Shown here: positions 5,386-13,056 of the stretch, one piece after another
Position numbering within the stretch: the stretch's first letter is position 1
Layout: the number at the start of each line of letters is the position of its first letter
Assembly: GCA_002371785.1 (NCBI GenBank)
Contig: DFGU01000091.1
Location: forward strand, 1 to 39,576
DNA: 39,576 bases
Source: Bacteroidales bacterium UBA3742
GTDB taxonomy: Bacteria > Bacteroidota > Bacteroidia > Bacteroidales > Paludibacteraceae
Direction of reading: 5' to 3'
Notes under the pieces: model-generated
What the model was told of the DNA's origin: nothing
Databases searched by the model: none
What the model saw: the letters and a program-made list of their open reading frames with translations, nothing else
Made by a program: the position numbers and the translations under genes

Positions 5386-7215
5386 TTATTCTTGTTCTTC
5401 GTCTTCCGAATCATTATCTACAAAAACACCTTCTTCATTCAGATTTTGCACGTCACGAACGATAGGTTTACCCATTGCATTCTCAATGAGTTTAAAGATT
5501 GCTTCTTTTCTATCATCTATAAAATCATTAAATCTATCATAACGCACCAGTTCTGGGTTAATCACATGTGTGCGTAAAAGGTTGTCTATATCTTCAGCGG
5601 AAATTTTTGCCTTCTTCTCCAAGCGTATAAGATATTTGCTTGGAGCCTCTCCGCCGACAAAGATGTTTGTACCTTTAGAAAGTGGCGTTTTATTTATAAT
5701 TGTATCATAATCACTCTTGGGGATCTTGTTGTTCTCACACCAGAGTCGTGGAAATATATGATGAATATCTATTGATTTTTGGAAATATGTTTCCATTTCT
5801 ATTTTTGAACCCGTAAGCCAATCCGTCGTGTTTTCTCCCATTAATAATGCATATATTCCCTTGTATGCAGCACTATTACGAGTTCGTAATGTTTGCAAAC
5901 GAGAAGGAGAGAATACTGCATCATATATAGTTTGAGGCTCTTTCTCATCATTAAGAATCCAACCTACGACTTGCTGAATATCCAAGGCATAACGCGTTTC
6001 GTTGGCAGATCCATATAGCTCTCCAAAGACGCCACACCAAAACCAACGCATTAATTTATTCTTATTTCCTATATTATCAATCTCTTTTCCTAATACAGCA
6101 ATGATTGCTGACATCGGTATCAGTTGAGAAGTATATGGTAAATCACGAGCTGTAAATATATGATTACAAGTTAGAAGTTCTGCCGCTTTTATAAAGCCAT
6201 CAACAATTTCTTGTCGAGTGTCCTCATATTCATCAACTTTCAATTCTAGCATGCTTTTTCTTTTTGCGCTAACGGCAGGAATCTTTTCTGTCTCATTGCT
6301 TGCCTGCATTGCCGCCATTTTCTTCTTATATGTAGAAAGCAAAGTTACAGCTTGGATTAAATCGGTATTACATGTATTTTTTAGTACTTTATGATTGTTA
6401 AATGATGCATGAATATTGTCCCAATCTTTTTTCAAATCAAATCCACTTGCGGCATAAGTAGCAGTAAGCAATTCAAATACAGTCAAAGAAACACCGCCCG
6501 TATTGACCTTTTCAAACACCTGACAAACTGCTTCTTTACTATTCTCTTTTTTCATCACAATCACAGGCACACTATAGTGGCTATAATTGTTTATGACATA
6601 TCGTTCAAATTGACTTAAGAATCTCAATTTCTCGGTATCATAATTCCAATACTCCTCAAAATGCCATCTCCATTCGCTAAATTCATCAATCATGCACACA
6701 GGAAACATCATATTTTCAAACTCTTTCTCTTGTGTACTCAAATCACAGATAATATCATGACCAATATTCTGAGTGGCAATTTTGTTTTCATTGATAGAAA
6801 AAATCGCTTCTTCTAAATCCAAATCAGGATTCAAGGCCTTTTGCATATCTATATAATACCATCTTTTTATTTCATAGCCTTTTGAATTTTTCGTATTGAC
6901 AACACTATTTGAAACAATTGTTTGATACAAACTCGTCAAACGCTGCTGACCGTCAAGGATTAAATACTCCGGCTTAATATCTTTTGATATATTCACTCCT
7001 TCTACAGGTTTAGTCTTAAAAGAAGTGTTTTCTCCTGTTTCGAGAAGAGTAACAACACTTATTGGGAATGATTTGATTACAGATGCAATCAGTCCTTTGA
7101 TGCGGTTGTCATCCCACACCCATCCTCTTTGAAAGTCAGGAAGTTGAATTTTCCCTGTTTTGATGTCACATAGCAAATCTGCTAATGGTTTCTTCGTTGT
7201 ATCAAATGTTTCCAT
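5386..7215 (-). CDS. GmrSD-like DUF262 (ParB-like NTPase) / DUF1524 (His-Me finger nuclease) fusion protein, probable type IV (modification-dependent) restriction / defence nuclease
   Basis: A 609-aa ORF. The N-terminal LPDFQRGWVWDDNRIKGLIASV matches the DUF262 DxQRxxVW signature. The C-terminal DIHHIFPRLWCENN...INKTPLSKGTN matches the DUF1524 H..P...N...N pattern. Strongly AT-rich relative to the flanks. Confidence 0.85.
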   Translation of the reverse strand: METFDTTKKPLADLLCDIKTGKIQLPDFQRGWVWDDNRIKGLIASVIKSFPISVVTLLETGENTSFKTKPVEGVNISKDIKPEYLILDGQQRLTSLYQTIVSNSVVNTKNSKGYEIKRWYYIDMQKALNPDLDLEEAIFSINENKIATQNIGHDIICDLSTQEKEFENMMFPVCMIDEFSEWRWHFEEYWNYDTEKLRFLSQFERYVINNYSHYSVPVIVMKKENSKEAVCQVFEKVNTGGVSLTVFELLTATYAASGFDLKKDWDNIHASFNNHKVLKNTCNTDLIQAVTLLSTYKKKMAAMQASNETEKIPAVSAKRKSMLELKVDEYEDTRQEIVDGFIKAAELLTCNHIFTARDLPYTSQLIPMSAIIAVLGKEIDNIGNKNKLMRWFWCGVFGELYGSANETRYALDIQQVVGWILNDEKEPQTIYDAVFSPSRLQTLRTRNSAAYKGIYALLMGENTTDWLTGSKIEMETYFQKSIDIHHIFPRLWCENNKIPKSDYDTIINKTPLSKGTNIFVGGEAPSKYLIRLEKKAKISAEDIDNLLRTHVINPELVRYDRFNDFIDDRKEAIFKLIENAMGKPIVRDVQNLNEEGVFVDNDSEDEEQE

Positions 7216-7249: not shown

Positions 7250-7687
7250 TTAAAAGTTATCCCAATCTATCACTCGTGCAAAGTCGTGGTAGTTAATGGA
7301 TTTTATATGTTTTCCTATTATTTCTTGGAGAGATGTGTCCAAACTTGGCGCATCATCAAACCAAACTATCGTCAAGTGGCTGTCATTCGATTTGTCTCTT
7401 AACGACAATTCAAAACGATATGATTTTAGTATTTCGTCGGGTTTTAAAGGATCGTCGTCTATTATTTGGAAAGGCTTTTGTTCGCACGTTTCTATTTGAT
7501 CGGGGGTTAGTTGAAATAAAAAGCCTTCTTCCTTTGATTGTTTCAACAATCTTTGCAATATGTGGACAGCAACGCTATGGAAAGAGCCTTCCATACTACC
7601 TTCATATGTGTTTGAAACCCGAAAAGAACGTATTTCTACATCCTTTTCATCCGGGAAATCAATTGTTATGTGCTTTTTATTCTGCAT
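7250..7687 (-). CDS. Hypothetical protein (145 aa), first gene of the DUF262 block
   Basis: An intact ORF 34 nt upstream of the DUF262 gene, with the same strand and AT-rich composition. No domain recognised. Confidence 0.6.
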   Translation of the reverse strand: MQNKKHITIDFPDEKDVEIRSFRVSNTYEGSMEGSFHSVAVHILQRLLKQSKEEGFLFQLTPDQIETCEQKPFQIIDDDPLKPDEILKSYRFELSLRDKSNDSHLTIVWFDDAPSLDTSLQEIIGKHIKSINYHDFARVIDWDNF

Positions 7688-7737
7688 TATTTATAATAGT
7701 TTACAAAGTGTCTACTATCGGGTGGTGTTATTTTTTT

Positions 7738-7997
7738 AATCCTCCATAAATGGCGGATACTTTTCTTTCAATCCTCCATATATGGCGGATACTTTTCTTT
7801 TAATCCTCCATATATGGCGGATACTTTTCTTTTAATCCTCCATAAATGGCGGATGCTTTTCTTTCAATCCTCCATATATGGCGGATACTTTTCTTTTAAT
7901 CCTCCATAAATGGCGGATGCTTTTCTTTTGATCCTCCATATATGGCGGATACGGTGGGTGCTTTTAATCCTCCATATATGGCGGATACTTTTTTTGG
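7738..7997. repeat. Tandem array of 8 head-to-tail units (32 bp; unit 7 is 36 bp), each AATCCTCCATAWATGGCGGATRC plus a T-rich linker (REP-like array)
   Basis: Direct reading puts the CCTCC unit starts at 7741, 7773, 7805, 7837, 7869, 7901, 7933 and 7969. Each unit holds an imperfect 20-bp palindrome whose arms are ATCCTCCAT/ATGGCGGAT, with one T:C mismatch. Two unit variants (ATAAAT and ATATAT cores) partly alternate. Confidence 0.95.
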
Positions 7998-8000
7998 TTG

Positions 8001-8020
8001 ATCCGCCAAACTTGGCGGAT
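8001..8020. repeat. REP-like palindrome ATCCGCCAAACTTGGCGGAT (9-bp perfect arms)
   Basis: Read directly. It lies between the tandem array and the RAYT-like stop codon. An extra half-site GGCGGATAC sits at 8030-8038. Confidence 0.9.
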
Positions 8021-8039
8021 GCGTTTCTTGGCGGATACG

Positions 8040-9203
8040 TTATTCGGTATGGCGGGTGCTATGCATTGTATGGCGGGTAGTACTATGCATTGTAGGGCGG
8101 AGGCTGTTCTTACATATTTGGGCGGCGAGGGTGTTCATGTTATGGAAGCGGCTGTAGTCGGTATCTGCGGGGATGTCGTTGACATCTCCCATATCGGTCA
8201 GTTGCCAGGGAGAGAGAATGAGCAATTGTCCCATCTCACAGAGCTGATGACGCCGCTTCTCCGGATGCCAGCCATCGCGTATGGGTTCTTTTTGCAAATG
8301 GATAAGCGGAAGGGCTTGCTCGATACAATCCTTGACCAGTTGTTGTTCGCCTTTCGATATACCCGGTGTGACCAATACGGCGCCATCCTTGGCTGCTTGG
8401 ATCCATGCGGCGCGTTCTTGCTGGAACGCGTCGGTGGTCTCATAGCGGGTATTATAGTCGCGTTGATCGCCGCGCATAAGCCAACGATGGCAGAAGACCT
8501 GTTCTTTCCACGGGCGCTTGAGCAAAAAGAGATTTCCATATGCAGCGAAGTCCTGTCCGTCGATGGTGATATGCTGGCGACGCTGGAACAAATCGGGATA
8601 CAAACCTCGCATGATCGCCCGACGAGGATTATCCTGGACATAGTTGATGATGTTCTCCAGCTGGCCTTTGCGGTAACAAATGGTATCATCGTAATTGTCG
8701 TCGAAGAGGGGCTCTATATCATGCTCGGCATAATAGGTCTCGCGCTTTTTGCGGGAGGAATGGGCGAGGTATTCGCGATCTATGTCGGGATCCGCCATAT
8801 ATGGCGGATACAAAGAACGATACGCCTGTGTACAGCCCATTTTGAAGCCGCGGATGATCTCACCAAGAGGTACGTCCAAGGGACGCTCTACCTGGAGGAT
8901 ACCATGGAAATGGTCGGGCATGACCTGGTAGCCCAGCGAACGGATTTGACGGCCGCGGGCGGTTTGCTTATCAAAGGTCTGTAGCCACGCTTGCTCTACG
9001 TATTGACCAAGCTTGGTCAATACGATAGAGGGAGCGGAGAGATCGTTGTTCAGTTCGCCAAACACGCGCTTGCGTGCGTGCGTGACGATAGTAATAAGGT
9101 ATATCCCGGAGGATTTGTAATCCCTCCAGGTATTGTGAGGACGATGGGCGCTACTCAATAGGCCGCCACGGTCCTTCCAATATGTATACCAATCGAACGA
9201 CAT
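8040..9203 (-). CDS. REP-associated tyrosine transposase (RAYT)-like HUH/Y1 protein with a long C-terminal extension
   Basis: A 387-aa ORF. It has the HUH motif (VMPDHFHGILQV) and the downstream Y motif (ENIINYVQDNPRRAIMRGL, compare YIxxNP of IS200/RAYT Y1 enzymes). Palindromic repeats flank it on both sides. About 180 further residues after the Y motif have no recognised domain. Confidence 0.8.
   Translation of the reverse strand: MSFDWYTYWKDRGGLLSSAHRPHNTWRDYKSSGIYLITIVTHARKRVFGELNNDLSAPSIVLTKLGQYVEQAWLQTFDKQTARGRQIRSLGYQVMPDHFHGILQVERPLDVPLGEIIRGFKMGCTQAYRSLYPPYMADPDIDREYLAHSSRKKRETYYAEHDIEPLFDDNYDDTICYRKGQLENIINYVQDNPRRAIMRGLYPDLFQRRQHITIDGQDFAAYGNLFLLKRPWKEQVFCHRWLMRGDQRDYNTRYETTDAFQQERAAWIQAAKDGAVLVTPGISKGEQQLVKDCIEQALPLIHLQKEPIRDGWHPEKRRHQLCEMGQLLILSPWQLTDMGDVNDIPADTDYSRFHNMNTLAAQICKNSLRPTMHSTTRHTMHSTRHTE
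8047..8100. repeat. Degenerate tandem repeat GTATGGCGGGT..CTATGCATT (2.4 copies) inside the 3' end of the RAYT-like ORF
   Basis: Read directly: gtatggcgggtgctatgcatt / gtatggcgggtagtactatgcatt / gtagggcgg. It encodes the repetitive C-terminal tail TMHSTTRHTMHSTRHTE. Confidence 0.85.
8790..8809. repeat. Perfect 20-bp palindrome ATCCGCCATATATGGCGGAT inside the RAYT-like coding sequence
   Basis: Read directly. It is self-complementary over all 20 nt and encodes PPYMADPD, between the HUH and Y motifs. Confidence 0.95.
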
Positions 9204-9211
9204 TGTTTATG

Positions 9212-9264
9212 ATCCGCCATGTATGGCGGATACGTATGGGGAGGATCCGCCATACATGGCGGAT
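9212..9264. repeat. Two REP-like palindromes: ATCCGCCATGTATGGCGGAT at 9212-9231 and ATCCGCCATACATGGCGGAT at 9245-9264
   Basis: Read directly. They fill almost the whole gap between the gdhA stop (9268) and the RAYT-like start (9203). Confidence 0.95.
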
Positions 9265-9267
9265 GCG

Positions 9268-10623
9268 TTATACCAGGCCTTGCTCGACCATGGCGTTGGC
9301 GACTTTCATGAAGCCGGCGATGTTAGCACCACGGACGTAGTTGATATAGCCGTCCTCCTCTGTGCCATACTTGAGGCAAGCGGCGTGGATGTCGGCCATG
9401 ATGGTACGCAGACGTTGATCCACCTCCTCGGCGGTCCACTTGAGACGCATCGAGTTCTGGCTCATCTCGAGACCGGAGGTAGCTACACCACCGGCGTTGC
9501 TGGCCTTACCCGGGCTATAGAGGATCTTAGCGCCTTGGAACAACGCAATAGCATCCGGCGTGGTCGGCATGTTAGCGCCTTCGGTCACGCAGAAGCAACC
9601 GTTCTTAAGCAGGTTCTCGGCGTCGGCTTTTTCAATCTCGTTCTGCGTAGCGCACGGCATAGCGATATCGCAAGGGATGCGCCATGGACGCTCGCCGGGG
9701 AAATACTGAGCCTGCGGATACTTAGCCACGTACTCTTTGATACGGCCGCGACGAACGTTTTTGAGTTCGAAGACATAGGCCATCTTCTCTTCGTTGAGAC
9801 CTTCCGGATCGTAGATGAAACCGTCGGAGTCGCTCAAAGTGAGCACCTTGGCGCCCAGACGCATGGCCTTCTGGGCAGCGAACTGCGCTACGTTACCGGC
9901 ACCGGAGATACATACACGCTTGCCCTCGAAGGACTCACCACGCGTTGCGAGCATCGCCTCGGCGAAGTAACAAGCACCGTAGCCGGTAGCCTCCGGACGC
10001 ATGAGCGAACCGCCCCAGTTCTGGCCTTTACCGGTGAGCGTACCGGTGAACTCGTCACGCAGACGCTTGTACTGGCCGAACATAAAACCAATCTCACGAC
10101 CACCTACACCGATATCACCGGCCGGTACGTCGGTATCAGCACCGATATGACGCTGGAGCTCGGTCATAAACGACTGGCAGAAACGCATCACCTCGGCGTC
10201 GGACTTGCCACGCGGCGAGAAATCGGATCCACCCTTGGCACCACCCATCGGCAGCGTGGTGAGGGCGTTCTTGAAGGTCTGCTCGAAGGCGAGGAACTTC
10301 ATGATACTCAGGTTGACAGACGCATGGAAACGGATACCTCCCTTATACGGACCGATAGCCGAGTTCATCTGTACGCGGAAGCCGCGGTTGATCTGCACCT
10401 CGCCCTCATCGTCCATCCACGGTACGCGGAACATGATGACGCGCTCGGGTTCTACCATGCGCTCCATGATCTTCTGCTCACGCAGATAGGGATAGGCCAT
10501 GATCATCGGTGCGACCGATTCTACTACTTCGCGAACAGCCTGGTGGAACTCGTGCTCACCGGGGTTCTTGCTGATCAGGTCGGCCATAAAAGACTCGACA
10601 TACATTTGGGTTTGTTTGTCCAT
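9268..10623 (-). CDS. gdhA: NADP-specific glutamate dehydrogenase
   Basis: A 451-aa ORF with hallmark GDH segments (KGGIRFH, LPMGGAKGGSDF, GAGNVAQ). Confidence 0.95.
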   Translation of the reverse strand: MDKQTQMYVESFMADLISKNPGEHEFHQAVREVVESVAPMIMAYPYLREQKIMERMVEPERVIMFRVPWMDDEGEVQINRGFRVQMNSAIGPYKGGIRFHASVNLSIMKFLAFEQTFKNALTTLPMGGAKGGSDFSPRGKSDAEVMRFCQSFMTELQRHIGADTDVPAGDIGVGGREIGFMFGQYKRLRDEFTGTLTGKGQNWGGSLMRPEATGYGACYFAEAMLATRGESFEGKRVCISGAGNVAQFAAQKAMRLGAKVLTLSDSDGFIYDPEGLNEEKMAYVFELKNVRRGRIKEYVAKYPQAQYFPGERPWRIPCDIAMPCATQNEIEKADAENLLKNGCFCVTEGANMPTTPDAIALFQGAKILYSPGKASNAGGVATSGLEMSQNSMRLKWTAEEVDQRLRTIMADIHAACLKYGTEEDGYINYVRGANIAGFMKVANAMVEQGLV

Positions 10624-10650
10624 AATGTTGAATATTATAACAGATTAATA

Positions 10651-11409
10651 CTAATTTCGTTGACGAATAGCCTCGTAGATAAATACACCGGCCGCTACAC
10701 TGACGTTGAGCGACTCGATGACACCGGTCATAGGCAGCTTGACGCGGTCGGTACAGAGGTCCAGGTTCGGACCATAGATACCATGCTCCTCGGAGCCCAT
10801 GACGATAGCCGTCGGACCCGTCATGTCGCAGTCGGTATAGAGGCGGTCGGTATGTTCGGTAGCAGCCACGACGCGCAGTCCGCTGTCGCGCAAGTACTGC
10901 AGGCACTCCTGCATATTCTCCACCTTGCAAATGGGCAGGGAGAAGAGGGCACCGGCCGAGGTCTTGATGGCATCGCCGTTGATGGCGACGCTACTACGCG
11001 AAGCAATAACGATCCCGTGTACACCCGCACAAGCGCATGTACGCGCGATAGCTCCGAAGTTGCGCACATCGGTCACGCCATCCAGCACCACCAGCAACGG
11101 CGTCTTGCCCTCGTCGTAGAGCGACTGCACGAGGCTATCGATCGGATAGAACTCGACAGGCGAGAGGAAGGCGATGACGCCCTGATGATTCTTGTCGGTA
11201 TATTGGTTGAGGCGCTCTACGGGCACACGCTGGATATTGGTGGCGGTGCCTGCCAGTTTCTGCTGCAGTTCGCGTCCGATAGCGGAGTTCATATCGCGGC
11301 GCATCAGCACTTTGTCCAGCGCTTTGCCGGCCTCGATGGCCTCTATTACCGCCCGGATACCGAAGATCATCTCCTTCTCCGGCGGACGTTTGGTGTCATA
11401 TTGTTTCAT
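10651..11409 (-). CDS. rlmB: 23S rRNA (guanosine-2'-O)-methyltransferase, RlmB/TrmH (SPOUT) family
   Basis: A 252-aa ORF. It has an N-terminal SpoU substrate-binding-like segment (IFGIRAVIEAIEAG) and C-terminal SPOUT motifs (NFGAIARTC, MGSEEHG, ESLNVSVAAG). Confidence 0.85.
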   Translation of the reverse strand: MKQYDTKRPPEKEMIFGIRAVIEAIEAGKALDKVLMRRDMNSAIGRELQQKLAGTATNIQRVPVERLNQYTDKNHQGVIAFLSPVEFYPIDSLVQSLYDEGKTPLLVVLDGVTDVRNFGAIARTCACAGVHGIVIASRSSVAINGDAIKTSAGALFSLPICKVENMQECLQYLRDSGLRVVAATEHTDRLYTDCDMTGPTAIVMGSEEHGIYGPNLDLCTDRVKLPMTGVIESLNVSVAAGVFIYEAIRQRN

Positions 11410-11421
11410 ATAATGGTCGGT

Positions 11422-13056
11422 TTAAAAATTCTTAATCAGTCGGCCTTGCGCGTCATAAACACGACCGGCATAGTGCATATATACCTGACCGCCATGCAGG
11501 AACTTGCTGGCAGCGCGTTGCTGCTCGGCCGAGAGTTGCTCCAGCGGGGTCTCTCCGCCGGGCTGCGCCTGGATGGTGAAGACGGTCATGATGACCGTGG
11601 TAGGCAGGTAGTTGTTGTTGCCGGGATGGTAAGCCACCACCGTCACTTCGCCCTCGTTCTCCGGCATGATGATGCCATCCTCGATCGAGAGCAGACACTC
11701 TGTATAGGCGTACGTGATAGGCAGGCCGGACGAGAGTACGGCGGTAGAAGGCACGGGTGTACCCACGGTCAGCTGGGTCGGTTGCTCCTCCCACAGGATG
11801 GTCTGCACAGCTTTGTTCACATGCAGCGGCACTTGGAGCGTGCGGGTGTTGTAGATACACGGGTCGTCGGGCGTGAAGATCAAGGTGAGCGCATAGTCGC
11901 CGGCATCCAGGAGGGAGTCTGTGGCTATATTCTGCCAAGCAAACGAACCCGGCACTTGGCCGAGCGTCTCATGTATCTGAGCCGCGCTCAAGGGCTGACC
12001 GTACGTCAGGTCGTCTACCGTCACGCCGATCATCGGATCGGCTTTGCGGATGCTCAGGCTCTTGGCAATCGGTTCGGCCGCATTGTATTTGTAGTTACCC
12101 GGCTGGGTAGCGGTCAGCGTCACCTCGCCAGCACACAGGATCTGCACTACCCCATCCTGCACATACGCTATCGTGGAATCCGAACTCTCATACTGCACCG
12201 GCAGACCCGACGACGTGAAGGCATTCAGCATCGGTCGGTCGGTGGTAAGGTACTCGCCCAGGGTCTGGATCCAGGTGAGCGTCTGGTCGTATTTCTTGGT
12301 CTCACCCGAGACGGCGATACGCACCTCGCGGCCCTCACCGGCAATCACGATCTCGCCGCTATGCTGGCCCGCTTCGCTATGCGAATAGATGATATTGAGT
12401 TGGGTGGACTGGTTGATCTGGTTCTTCTGCCCCACCGACGTGAGCGAGGCCGAGAAATGCGGGTCGGTAGAAGATACCTCGGCCACGATATTGGTCCAGT
12501 TGACCGTCACACTCTTCACGCCATCGGCATCGTCGACCATGGCGCTACCGAAGGGCCACTCGTCGGTGCTGGCGCTCAGGCTCTTCAGTTCGGTCACCTT
12601 GATCTTGCGGAACGCGACCGCCGTCTTACCCGTTGCGTAGAACTTCAGGTAACGGGTGTTGGTGGCCAGCGCCAAGCTCTCCTCTGTATCGGTGGAGATG
12701 GTGTTACCCTCTTTGGTCAGCAGAAGCGACCAGTTGTTGTGGTCGGGCGACTGATAGACGCTGAGCGAACCGTTACTACCACCTTGCCATGCAAAGCTCA
12801 AGGTCTCGGGTATGCCAACCGGATTGAGCGCGATGACACACTCGTCCTCATAGGTACCAATCAGCACGATCTTACCTATTTTCAGGCCACCGCCCAGGCC
12901 CAATAGCGCATTATCATAACTCACGTTCTCCGTCTTGGAGATCACGGTCTGGGCATTGTTGAAATCGTCTTTTGTAAACTCCGTATCCCAGGCCAGTTGG
13001 GCCGAGAGGGAGATCGAAACAGCCATCGCTGCTATCAAAGCGTAAAACTTATTCAT
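11422..13056 (-). CDS. Secreted hypothetical protein with Ig-like repeats
   Basis: A 544-aa ORF with a signal peptide (MNKFYALIAAMAVSISLSAQ), beta-rich repetitive content and a C-terminal GGQVYMHYAGRVYDAQGRLIKNF tail. Confidence 0.7.
   Translation of the reverse strand: MNKFYALIAAMAVSISLSAQLAWDTEFTKDDFNNAQTVISKTENVSYDNALLGLGGGLKIGKIVLIGTYEDECVIALNPVGIPETLSFAWQGGSNGSLSVYQSPDHNNWSLLLTKEGNTISTDTEESLALATNTRYLKFYATGKTAVAFRKIKVTELKSLSASTDEWPFGSAMVDDADGVKSVTVNWTNIVAEVSSTDPHFSASLTSVGQKNQINQSTQLNIIYSHSEAGQHSGEIVIAGEGREVRIAVSGETKKYDQTLTWIQTLGEYLTTDRPMLNAFTSSGLPVQYESSDSTIAYVQDGVVQILCAGEVTLTATQPGNYKYNAAEPIAKSLSIRKADPMIGVTVDDLTYGQPLSAAQIHETLGQVPGSFAWQNIATDSLLDAGDYALTLIFTPDDPCIYNTRTLQVPLHVNKAVQTILWEEQPTQLTVGTPVPSTAVLSSGLPITYAYTECLLSIEDGIIMPENEGEVTVVAYHPGNNNYLPTTVIMTVFTIQAQPGGETPLEQLSAEQQRAASKFLHGGQVYMHYAGRVYDAQGRLIKNF

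Follow-up and report, generated by a model that had tools for sequence, protein, structure and literature searches.

A RAYT-type enzyme with a DprA-like C-terminal domain in Bacteroidales, with palindromes inside and around its gene

What does a tyrosine transposase associated with repetitive extragenic palindromic (REP) sequences (RAYT) do when it is about twice the usual size and has palindromes both around and inside its own gene? The cellular role of RAYTs is unsettled, and the accounts of REP spread and of the persistence of the enzyme rest mainly on small, single-domain proteins from Proteobacteria. The question is raised by a gene in a stretch of 39,576 nucleotides from Bacteroidales bacterium UBA3742 (assembly GCA_002371785.1, contig DFGU01000091.1), the whole of which is called the window here. 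The gene encodes a RAYT-type enzyme of 387 amino acids (aa) with a previously unannotated, DprA-like C-terminal domain. It belongs to a large family, mostly from gut or rumen Bacteroidales, whose members carry a RAYT-type nuclease and a DprA-like module in permanent fusion. The protein-coding features are the following, with positions in the window:

8040..9203, minus strand: gene of the two-domain protein, with a histidine-hydrophobic-histidine (HUH) domain and a DprA-like domain; complete open reading frame (ORF) with ATG start, 387 aa and a stop codon.
8601..9125, minus strand: RAYT-like Y1 HUH nuclease domain, residues ~27-201, from the NF047646 match, Foldseek and the structural model.
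8904..8912, minus strand: metal-binding HUH motif H98-F99-H100 in MPDHFHGIL, conserved in the alignment.
8619..8642, minus strand: catalytic-tyrosine motif Y188-V-Q-D-N192-P193-R-R195 on a predicted helix (179-201), from the alignment and the model.
8106..8597, minus strand: DprA-like (SLOG/Rossmannoid) domain, residues ~203-366, from Foldseek and profile search; no Pfam family.
8043..8105, minus strand: C-terminal tail, residues 367-387, repeat-derived, of low confidence and unconserved in relatives.

A first-pass annotation, made from the letters of the window alone, had described an oversized RAYT-like HUH/Y1 protein, and the peptides that it quoted are all present: MPDHFHGIL at residues 95-103, NYVQDNPRRA at 187-196, GAVLVTPGISKGEQQLVKDCIEQALPLIHLQKEPI at 274-308 (the stretch GAVLVTPGISKGEQQ begins at residue 274) and GQLLILSPW at 325-333. 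In an alignment of the 387-aa protein with 29 diverse representatives (A1, 30 sequences), M95, P96, D97, H98 and H100 are invariant, and the same holds for Y188, N192, P193 and R195, so that neither the HUH histidines nor the catalytic tyrosine are lost in any of the 30. In the classification of Quentin et al. (PMC6006769), class 2 (TnpA-REP) is recognised by the arrangement Y-x3-N-P. REP_Tyr_transpos is the best NCBIfam family for all 30 sequences, always under its cutoff (best E 5.5e-17), while PF01797 (Y1_Tnp) is found at E<=0.01 in 14 of the 30 and the IS200 model matches only six.

The predicted structure points in the same direction. An AlphaFold2 model built on A1 has a predicted local distance difference test score (pLDDT) of 87.1 and a predicted template modelling score (pTM) of 0.80, and its N-terminal domain exceeds a pLDDT of 90 apart from loop 130-170; a single-sequence model (pLDDT 39.6) was dropped in its favour. 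The best Foldseek matches in the PDB are the TnpA proteins of ISDra2, IS608 and IS200 (E 3e-5 to 1e-3, probability 1.00), headed by the IS200/IS605 TnpA 2xma (E 2.8e-5), with TM-scores of 0.57-0.68 when normalised to the target (2xma, 2xm3, 2f4f, 2a6m, 2vju). The structure of E. coli RAYT with its REP hairpin (4er8) is matched at E 4e-4, and the A1 profile finds ISDra2 TnpA among PDB sequences at E 0.002. Invariant residues, structural matches and family preference together bear out the HUH/Y1 identity. The statement that such enzymes are well under 250 aa fared less evenly: it stands for the averages of the published TnpA-Y1 subclasses (148-238 aa), but not for subclass 2.3, which reaches a median of 325 aa (PMC6006769).

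The C-terminal half has no Pfam family, and members of the family go by the name of "hypothetical protein" (NCBI) or "REP element-mobilizing transposase RayT" (IMG, assigned automatically; COG "RayT"), so that the present assignment supplies a missing domain annotation. A DprA-like, SLOG-type Rossmannoid fold is well supported for this half, in agreement with what had earlier been guessed by eye. Directly after the TnpA and RAYT chains, Foldseek ranks ShosA (8zva, E 1.9e-3, probability 1.00), a DprA-like antitoxin that binds single-stranded DNA (ssDNA) and RecA (PMC12961424), and the DprA of S. pneumoniae is found as well (3uqz, E 0.017, probability 0.98). Profile searches over 177,635 PDB sequences gave H. 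pylori DprA as the sole match of the C-terminal region, at E 0.08 with the full alignment and E 0.023 with an alignment of this domain alone (A2), for which no other PDB sequence was matched. None of 27 C-terminal domains is matched by any Pfam family. A homologue search with the domain alone returned proteins of at most 294 aa (134-294), and no Pfam domain was present in any of them. They look like fragments or genes with a wrong start and are uninformative on stand-alone domains.

How the domain aligns with DprA at the level of residues is less clear. In the HMMER register, which places it on residues 26-76 of H. pylori DprA, the family pattern GN-x2-LL-x2-P-x-K-x-x-V-x-C-[S/H]-R...GAVLVSP lies on G-D-x-x-LL-x-x-P-x-K-V-x-I-I-G-T-R...GAVIVSG of DprA. 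R240, the arginine of the V-x-C-[S/H]-R motif (at least 90% conserved), then falls on Arg52 of the G-S/T/A-R motif, which in H. pylori DprA is essential to ssDNA binding (PMC3950713). With hhalign, 107 enterobacterial DprA sequences gave another register, on residues 156-251 in the second half of the DprA domain (probability 17%), and E. coli Smf alone gave a register again unlike that of HMMER (probability 4%). Because the HMMER and hhalign registers disagree, the equivalence of R240 and Arg52 is tentative, and residue-level equivalences are not used in what follows.

The fusion is not a peculiarity of one strain. A scan with one genome per species gave 155 relatives, and the 80 loci that were kept span residues ~15-365 at 40-95% identity, that is, the fusion at full length; their hosts are metagenome-assembled genomes (MAGs) of rumen and gut Paludibacteraceae, Prevotellaceae, Muribaculaceae and Bacteroidaceae. 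A search of representative sequences gave 2390 clusters at E<=1e-3, which probably include other HUH proteins, 896 at E<=1e-10 and 137 at E<=1e-30. The best 150 representative clusters are typically 300-480 aa long, many of them aligned over both halves and the remainder fragments. Both halves of the fused protein are under purifying selection. The ratio of nonsynonymous to synonymous substitution rates (dN/dS), calculated for the window gene against its relatives L001, L003, L005 and L010, is 0.10-0.15 in the N-terminal half and lowest, 0.04-0.08, in the C-terminal half. We therefore regard the architecture, a RAYT-like HUH domain joined to a DprA-like domain in one genuine protein, as very highly probable. 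The last ~21 residues stand apart: repeats at 8056-8100 encode this tail, and the pLDDT of residues 376-387 is below 50. Since the tail (367-387) is repeat-derived and of low confidence, the conserved protein measures ~366 aa.

The second peculiarity of the locus is its palindromes, none of which is assigned to a strand:

9212..9264: two upstream palindromes (9212-9231 and 9245-9264), between the stop of gdhA and the start of the gene.
7729..8030: downstream array of nine palindromes, with six start-to-start spacings of 32 bp and the last two of 36 and 34 bp.
8790..8809: internal palindrome 1, ATCCGCCATATATGGCGGAT, encoding Y132-D138 (YPPYMAD), part of a loop at the surface that follows helix 113-131.
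8999..9024: internal palindrome 2, CGTATTGACCAAGCTTGGTCAATACG, 26 bp and perfect, overlying the conserved LTxLG motif at residues 60-69.

The flanking copies are GC-rich, 20-bp palindromes of the form ATCCGCCA-N4-TGGCGGAT, two upstream and nine downstream of the gene, with one more in the coding sequence. The pattern ATCCKCCATNNATGGCGGAT, with at most two mismatches, occurs at 12 sites (24 matches over both strands), all of them at 7739-9264; these 12 can also be written ATCC[G/T]CCAT-NN-ATGGCGGAT. Not one of 100 shuffled sequences contained a match, and the repeat array in which the first-pass annotation had placed the gene is thus real. The upstream palindromes are mutually inverted, with mirrored centres CATGTATG and CATACATG, and the segment 9206-9270 can fold into one stem of 20 bp that closes a 13-nt loop (-24.7 kcal/mol, z -8.5). 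This doublet is REPIN-like (in the manner of REP doublets forming hairpins) and is placed where a gdhA terminator would be expected. In the downstream array, the first eight palindromes belong to a 32-nt unit, TTTTCTTTTAATCCTCCATATATGGCGGATAC, and have one arm mismatch apiece, while the ninth is a distinct copy at 8001-8020. The orthologous locus L001 has an array of the same type. Four independent assemblies of the same gene (L201-L204) end 52-77 nt past the stop codon; the 32-bp tandem array thus breaks short-read assemblies, and the length of the array in the window may be uncertain.

In the clade of the window gene the layout is fixed, with a palindrome 27-31 nt before the ATG, one at nucleotide 395 of the gene, and one or more at or just past the 3' end, often in tandem. 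The palindrome type tracks the protein clade and even the paralogue. The type ATCCGCCA..TGGCGGAT is found in L001-L015, the type ATCAGCCA..TGGCTGAT in L017-L021, L030, L050 and L068, and the type GTCAGCCATGCATGGCTGAC in L022 and L024. Two paralogues of one MAG differ in their palindrome, with ATCCGCC in L003 and ATCAGCC in L021. In paralogues, too, the site within the gene agrees with the hairpins that flank it.

Internal palindrome 1 is maintained across the family through compensatory change. As ssDNA it folds into a hairpin of -8.8 kcal/mol (z -5.6). Its region was aligned from 77 loci picked regardless of palindromes (A3), and an 11-bp stem was scored: 86.4% of the cells are paired, against 72.6% in shuffled alignments and 13-44% when the partner is slid. 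Changes on both sides are seen in 10 of the 11 pairs (for example GC 40, CG 14, AU 13), and the covariation score of 0.319, compared with 0.131 in shuffles, was reached by none of 500 shuffles. In the Prevotellaceae-type clade, AATCGACCGATATCGGTCGATT stands at the codon position of this palindrome. Internal palindrome 2 (hairpin of -11.1 kcal/mol as ssDNA) occurs solely inside the gene, at its position 8999-9024. At residues identical to those of the window protein, codon identity is 83% in palindrome 2 and 78% in palindrome 1, as compared with 47% in the rest of the gene; synonymous codons are constrained in both, which indicates that the nucleotide sequence itself is under selection.

Furthermore, the correspondence between inner and outer hairpins recurs in distant homologues (32-34% identity) from other, partly high-GC organisms, in which the internal hairpin again matches the flanking one with unrelated sequences. 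L209 has GTTGCTGTATCACAGCAAC in the gene and GTTGCTGTATTACAGCAAC 70 nt past the stop, L206 has CTGCGCCC..GGGCGCAG upstream and twice in the gene, and L211 has GCGCCATGTATGGCGC in two copies in the gene and two just downstream. A conserved fusion that sits within palindromes of its own, as had been proposed for the window, thus holds in the 80 loci and in distant homologues. This is an unusually clean case of a DNA palindrome that is kept in a coding sequence, and it makes the co-evolution of enzyme and target directly measurable.

A different intragenic palindrome is present in six Prevotellaceae-type loci (L044, L048, L065, L066, L075 and L076). It lies at residue ~54, for example TTCGTGACCGATTTCGGTCACGAA, encoding FVTDFGHE, some 10 residues upstream of the site of palindrome 2, and its core GACC-N-GGTC resembles other palindromes of the family. 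It was at one point taken for the same site as palindrome 2 (residues 60-69); the codon alignment shows two different sites, and the claim of covariation between them was dropped.

Palindromes of this kind also seem to exist away from the gene. A metagenome scan for ATCCGCCA-N4-TGGCGGAT gave listed matches that mix high-GC chance matches with plausible cognate copies, and it gives no counts per genome. Among the matches listed there are many rumen-type contigs (GC 0.42-0.54) with the AT-rich palindrome centres that are typical of the family, and on these the palindromes are mostly located at ORF boundaries, in loci of up to 14 kb without the gene. Intergenic singletons on rumen-type contigs without the gene were seen in L085, L107, L154, L156, L183, L188 and others, L156 having a tandem pair with a period of 84 bp; in L097 one such palindrome lies within an unrelated 382-aa ORF. 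This suggests REP-like singletons, on contigs that are not assignable to genomes.

In most aspects the system is reminiscent of RAYT/TnpA-REP. With E. coli RayT (4er8) it shares the HUH motif and a single catalytic tyrosine in Y-x3-N-P, the fold (the Foldseek match given above) and the best NCBIfam family. It also shares the REPtron layout, in which the gene is chromosomal, present in few copies and bordered by palindromes that co-evolve with it, as well as a REPIN-like inverted doublet and tandem clusters that resemble bacterial interspersed mosaic elements (BIME). However, the present family is ~2x the size, falls below the curated HMM cutoffs, and carries a ~165-aa DprA-like domain that is unreported for any of the 12 subclasses. 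Most of its palindromes are perfect, none has a GTAG/CGTC foot, and dispersal is seen only as singletons on unassigned contigs. When compared by motif, length and taxon, the combination of DHFH, Y[VI]xDNPRR, ~340-390 aa and Bacteroidales fits none of the 12 TnpA-Y1 subclasses (Table 1 of PMC6006769). The suggestion of an undescribed RAYT class is in line with the two published classifications as summarised there, the family being set apart by motif comparison and not by phylogeny. In open-access text, no paper was found that links DprA or SLOG with RAYT or Y1 enzymes.

An intragenic palindrome as such has a precedent, since in subclass 2.4/group 4 RAYTs, REP sequences are inserted in frame within tnpA-REP (Quentin et al. 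2018, PMC6006769). Common to both is a frame-preserving palindrome in a variable surface region of the enzyme gene. The insertions of subclass 2.4 are found between beta3 and alpha-C, in differing number and length, whereas the present site has one fixed place, behind the helix that corresponds to alpha-C. The internal site is kept by compensatory change over clades that are ~40% identical, and the second palindrome overlies a conserved motif by means of codon choice; a fixed site and deep covariation are unreported for subclass 2.4 (PMC6006769). The motifs of the latter, NH[IFV]H and YIxNNP, and its size of ~194 aa are also unlike those of the present family.

With DprA/Smf and ShosA (3uqz, 4ljr, 8zva), the C-terminal domain shares the Rossmannoid fold (Foldseek probability 0.98-1.00), a profile match in which DprA is alone among the PDB sequences, and, in one of the two registers, the alignment of R240 with Arg52 of the G-S/T/A-R motif. 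It differs in its size (~160 aa versus ~205 aa for the DprA domain), in having no PF02481 match and no SAM or winged-helix partners, and in being fused to a nuclease instead of standing alone. The binding of ssDNA, dimerisation and the loading of RecA are known in DprA and ShosA (PMC3950713, PMC12961424). The fusion with such a fold therefore suggests a testable link between hairpin nicking and strand handling or recombination.

Taken as a whole, the locus probably encodes a domesticated enzyme of the RAYT type, which would nick and join ssDNA at cognate hairpins with the help of a built-in DprA-like module, a reading that we hold with moderate confidence. For the mechanism by which it might do so, we would give about even chances to the following scheme. 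The palindromes would be extruded as hairpins in single-stranded DNA, at replication forks or in transcription bubbles. The HUH domain would recognise the hairpin, cut beside it via a 5'-phosphotyrosine at Y188, and be able to rejoin the ends; this is proposed because of the homology with IS608/ISDra2 TnpA and E. coli TnpA-REP. Meanwhile, the DprA-like domain would hold the flanking single strand and, judging by its fold, may also serve for dimerisation of the enzyme or attract RecA, like DprA and ShosA. The net outcome would be that hairpin units are maintained, tandemly amplified and occasionally dispersed. Finally, with hairpins inside and beside it, the gene itself would become a substrate or a binding site, which would lead to autoregulation and self-limiting expression or to the co-inheritance of enzyme and target.

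Several observations weigh against this reading. On the N-terminal side, PF01797 (Y1_Tnp) is seen weakly on the 387-aa protein, with 14.7 bits and E 0.034, below the gathering score of 23, and NF047646 (REP_Tyr_transpos) matches residues 27-196 with E 4.8e-10 and 39.5 bits, under a curated cutoff of 80. As for the C-terminal half, PF02481 (DprA, DNA_processg_A) gave no match at E<=1 in the 27 domains, and the register on DprA is ambiguous. Preservation of the second DprA motif, F/L/Y-x-x-R-N/D, is doubtful as well; the family has [F/C]-x-x-[L/M]-N, with an invariant N357 and the arginine lost, and its placement on this motif is by eye. With regard to the palindromes, no GTAG/CGTC tetranucleotide was seen at their foot on direct reading, the flanking sequences being variable, and no copies occur in the 39.6-kb window outside 7739-9264. 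In the Prevotellaceae-type clade no flanking copies were found within 3 kb, and only the internal palindrome is present. The enzymology of the family is in its entirety a putative one, derived from homology.

In a variant that goes further, the protein would be a hairpin-addressed initiator of recombination that nicks at palindromes, with the DprA-like domain loading RecA or capturing the freed strand. We consider this rather improbable. If it were true, REP-like hairpins of Bacteroidales would be places at which strand exchange or repair is programmed, and the intragenic copies would make expression self-limiting.

A different view is that the palindromes are cis-regulatory elements (dimer operators, attenuators or terminators, or mRNA stability elements), and that the HUH protein acts on other targets or non-nucleolytically. 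Many of the copies are indeed perfect palindromes without an intrinsic loop, as is typical of dimer operator sites, and their position fits as well: one copy lies 9 nt before the ATG, and the interval from the gdhA stop to the gene start, where a terminator or attenuator would be placed, holds two. The copy at 8001-8020 scores terminator-like, and the intragenic copy stands alone in the Prevotellaceae-type clade. Regulation does not explain, however, why the hairpin type shifts with the protein clade and differs among paralogues of one genome, and the tandem repetition, in steps of 32-41 bp (84 bp in L156), and the intergenic singletons resemble the behaviour of REP/BIME sequences. HUH Y1 enzymes are, moreover, known to recognise such hairpins (PMC6006769). 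G-T wobble cells are rare in palindrome 1 as compared with full compensatory changes, which argues for pairing at the DNA level over the RNA level and does not separate an operator from a hairpin. On balance, a purely regulatory role seems rather unlikely.

It is also unlikely that the protein serves in anti-phage or ssDNA-sensing defence, with the DprA-like domain as a sensor of foreign ssDNA or RecA and the HUH domain as the effector. The best structural match of the C-terminal half is a defence antitoxin, the ssDNA and RecA binder ShosA (PMC12961424), homologues adjoin cas9 and cas1-cas2 (L205), PglZ/BrxL (L206) and HsdR (L208), and the window gene lies 350 bp from an orphan ORF that is followed by a GmrSD-like gene. 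Such a role would nevertheless leave the cognate palindromes unexplained. The neighbourhoods of distant members vary, with genes for pyruvate:ferredoxin oxidoreductase (PFOR), nonribosomal peptide synthetase (NRPS)/GH67 and lipopolysaccharide (LPS) as well as gdhA, and there is no conserved partner gene; searches with the PADLOC and PHROGs models gave no match of meaningful score, Rfam likewise yielded nothing of note, and the arrangement with cas9 was seen once, four of the six closest sampled relatives not being cas-linked.

That gene and hairpins make up an active IS200/IS605-type insertion sequence (IS), an autonomous transposon, is very unlikely. The hairpins on either side of a Y1 transposase-like gene do recall the left and right ends (LE/RE) of IS608, and the gene context differs among distant relatives. 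The best Foldseek matches are also IS200/IS605 TnpA structures (2xma first); with the TnpA of IS608 and ISDra2 the family shares, as predicted from sequence, the HUH/Y1 chemistry, and by analogy it may share the recognition of subterminal DNA hairpins. However, identical multi-copy insertions were not found, each MAG having one or two paralogues that are ~60% identical. Synteny with gdhA is kept in L001-L004 and in relatives down to 82% identity, and the neighbours of the gene are housekeeping genes. In plasmid and phage collections there was no full-length match, only weak matches of the N-terminal domain. The ORF list of the window contains no tnpB, purifying selection is strong, and there is the extra domain. 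IS200/IS605 TnpA has Y-x3-Q, whereas Y-x3-N-P and the preference for NF047646 indicate the domesticated RAYT class over IS200. The gene is solitary, chromosomal, low-copy and largely vertically inherited, and not an active IS.

Finally, the idea that the long ORF arose artificially, as a frame fusion, pseudogene or strain-specific read-through that joins a RAYT to an unrelated remnant, may be dismissed as practically refuted. It is true that the last 21 codons are repeat-derived and unconserved and that certain database entries are shorter (134-294 aa). However, the 80 loci and many of the best representative clusters contain full-length collinear homologues, the C-terminal half is the part with the lowest dN/dS, and the inter-domain model is confident (pTM 0.80).

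Some homologues are found next to defence genes. On L205 (70-6420, Logan SRR28408163_24048), the member P0049, of 345 aa and with HUH and Y motifs intact, has cas9 (1356 aa) on one side and cas1-cas2 on the other. All are read from one strand, with gaps of 3-4 nt, and it takes the position of a fourth type II gene; no CRISPR array was seen on this stretch, the contig of which begins 70 nt before cas9. It is taken as a one-off: P0056, P0071, P0043 and P0034, which are 47-49% identical to P0049, are not cas-linked, and the contigs of P0072 and P0048, also among its six closest sampled relatives, are too short to judge. A weaker idea, based on this one locus, is that the L205 member was perhaps co-opted by a type II CRISPR system as an accessory for the processing of ssDNA prespacers. 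On L206 (2443-9175) a homologue lies just upstream of PglZ and BrxL, of the bacteriophage exclusion (BREX) type, and on L208 (69-4867) a homologue adjoins the type I restriction gene HsdR. Together with the GmrSD-like gene of the window, these two loci hint at a tendency of the family toward variable or defence regions.

In the window itself, gdhA (9268-10623, ELFV dehydrogenase) borders the RAYT-like gene on one side. On the other side, directly past the tandem array, there is an orphan ORF of 145 aa (7250-7687, minus strand), which is kept in L001 and L002 at 79-87% identity and matched no Pfam family. It is followed by a 609-aa gene of the GmrSD_N (DUF262-type) restriction-endonuclease-like kind (5386-7215, minus strand), downstream of the repeat array. 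The latter is present in the window and in L002 and was undetected in the orthologous locus L001, which is 95% identical; the segment adjoining the array therefore varies among close relatives. Lastly, an ORF of 1227 aa on the plus strand (9223-12906) runs antisense over gdhA, a SpoU-type methyltransferase gene and part of the next gene, and is almost certainly a spurious stop-free frame rather than a gene.

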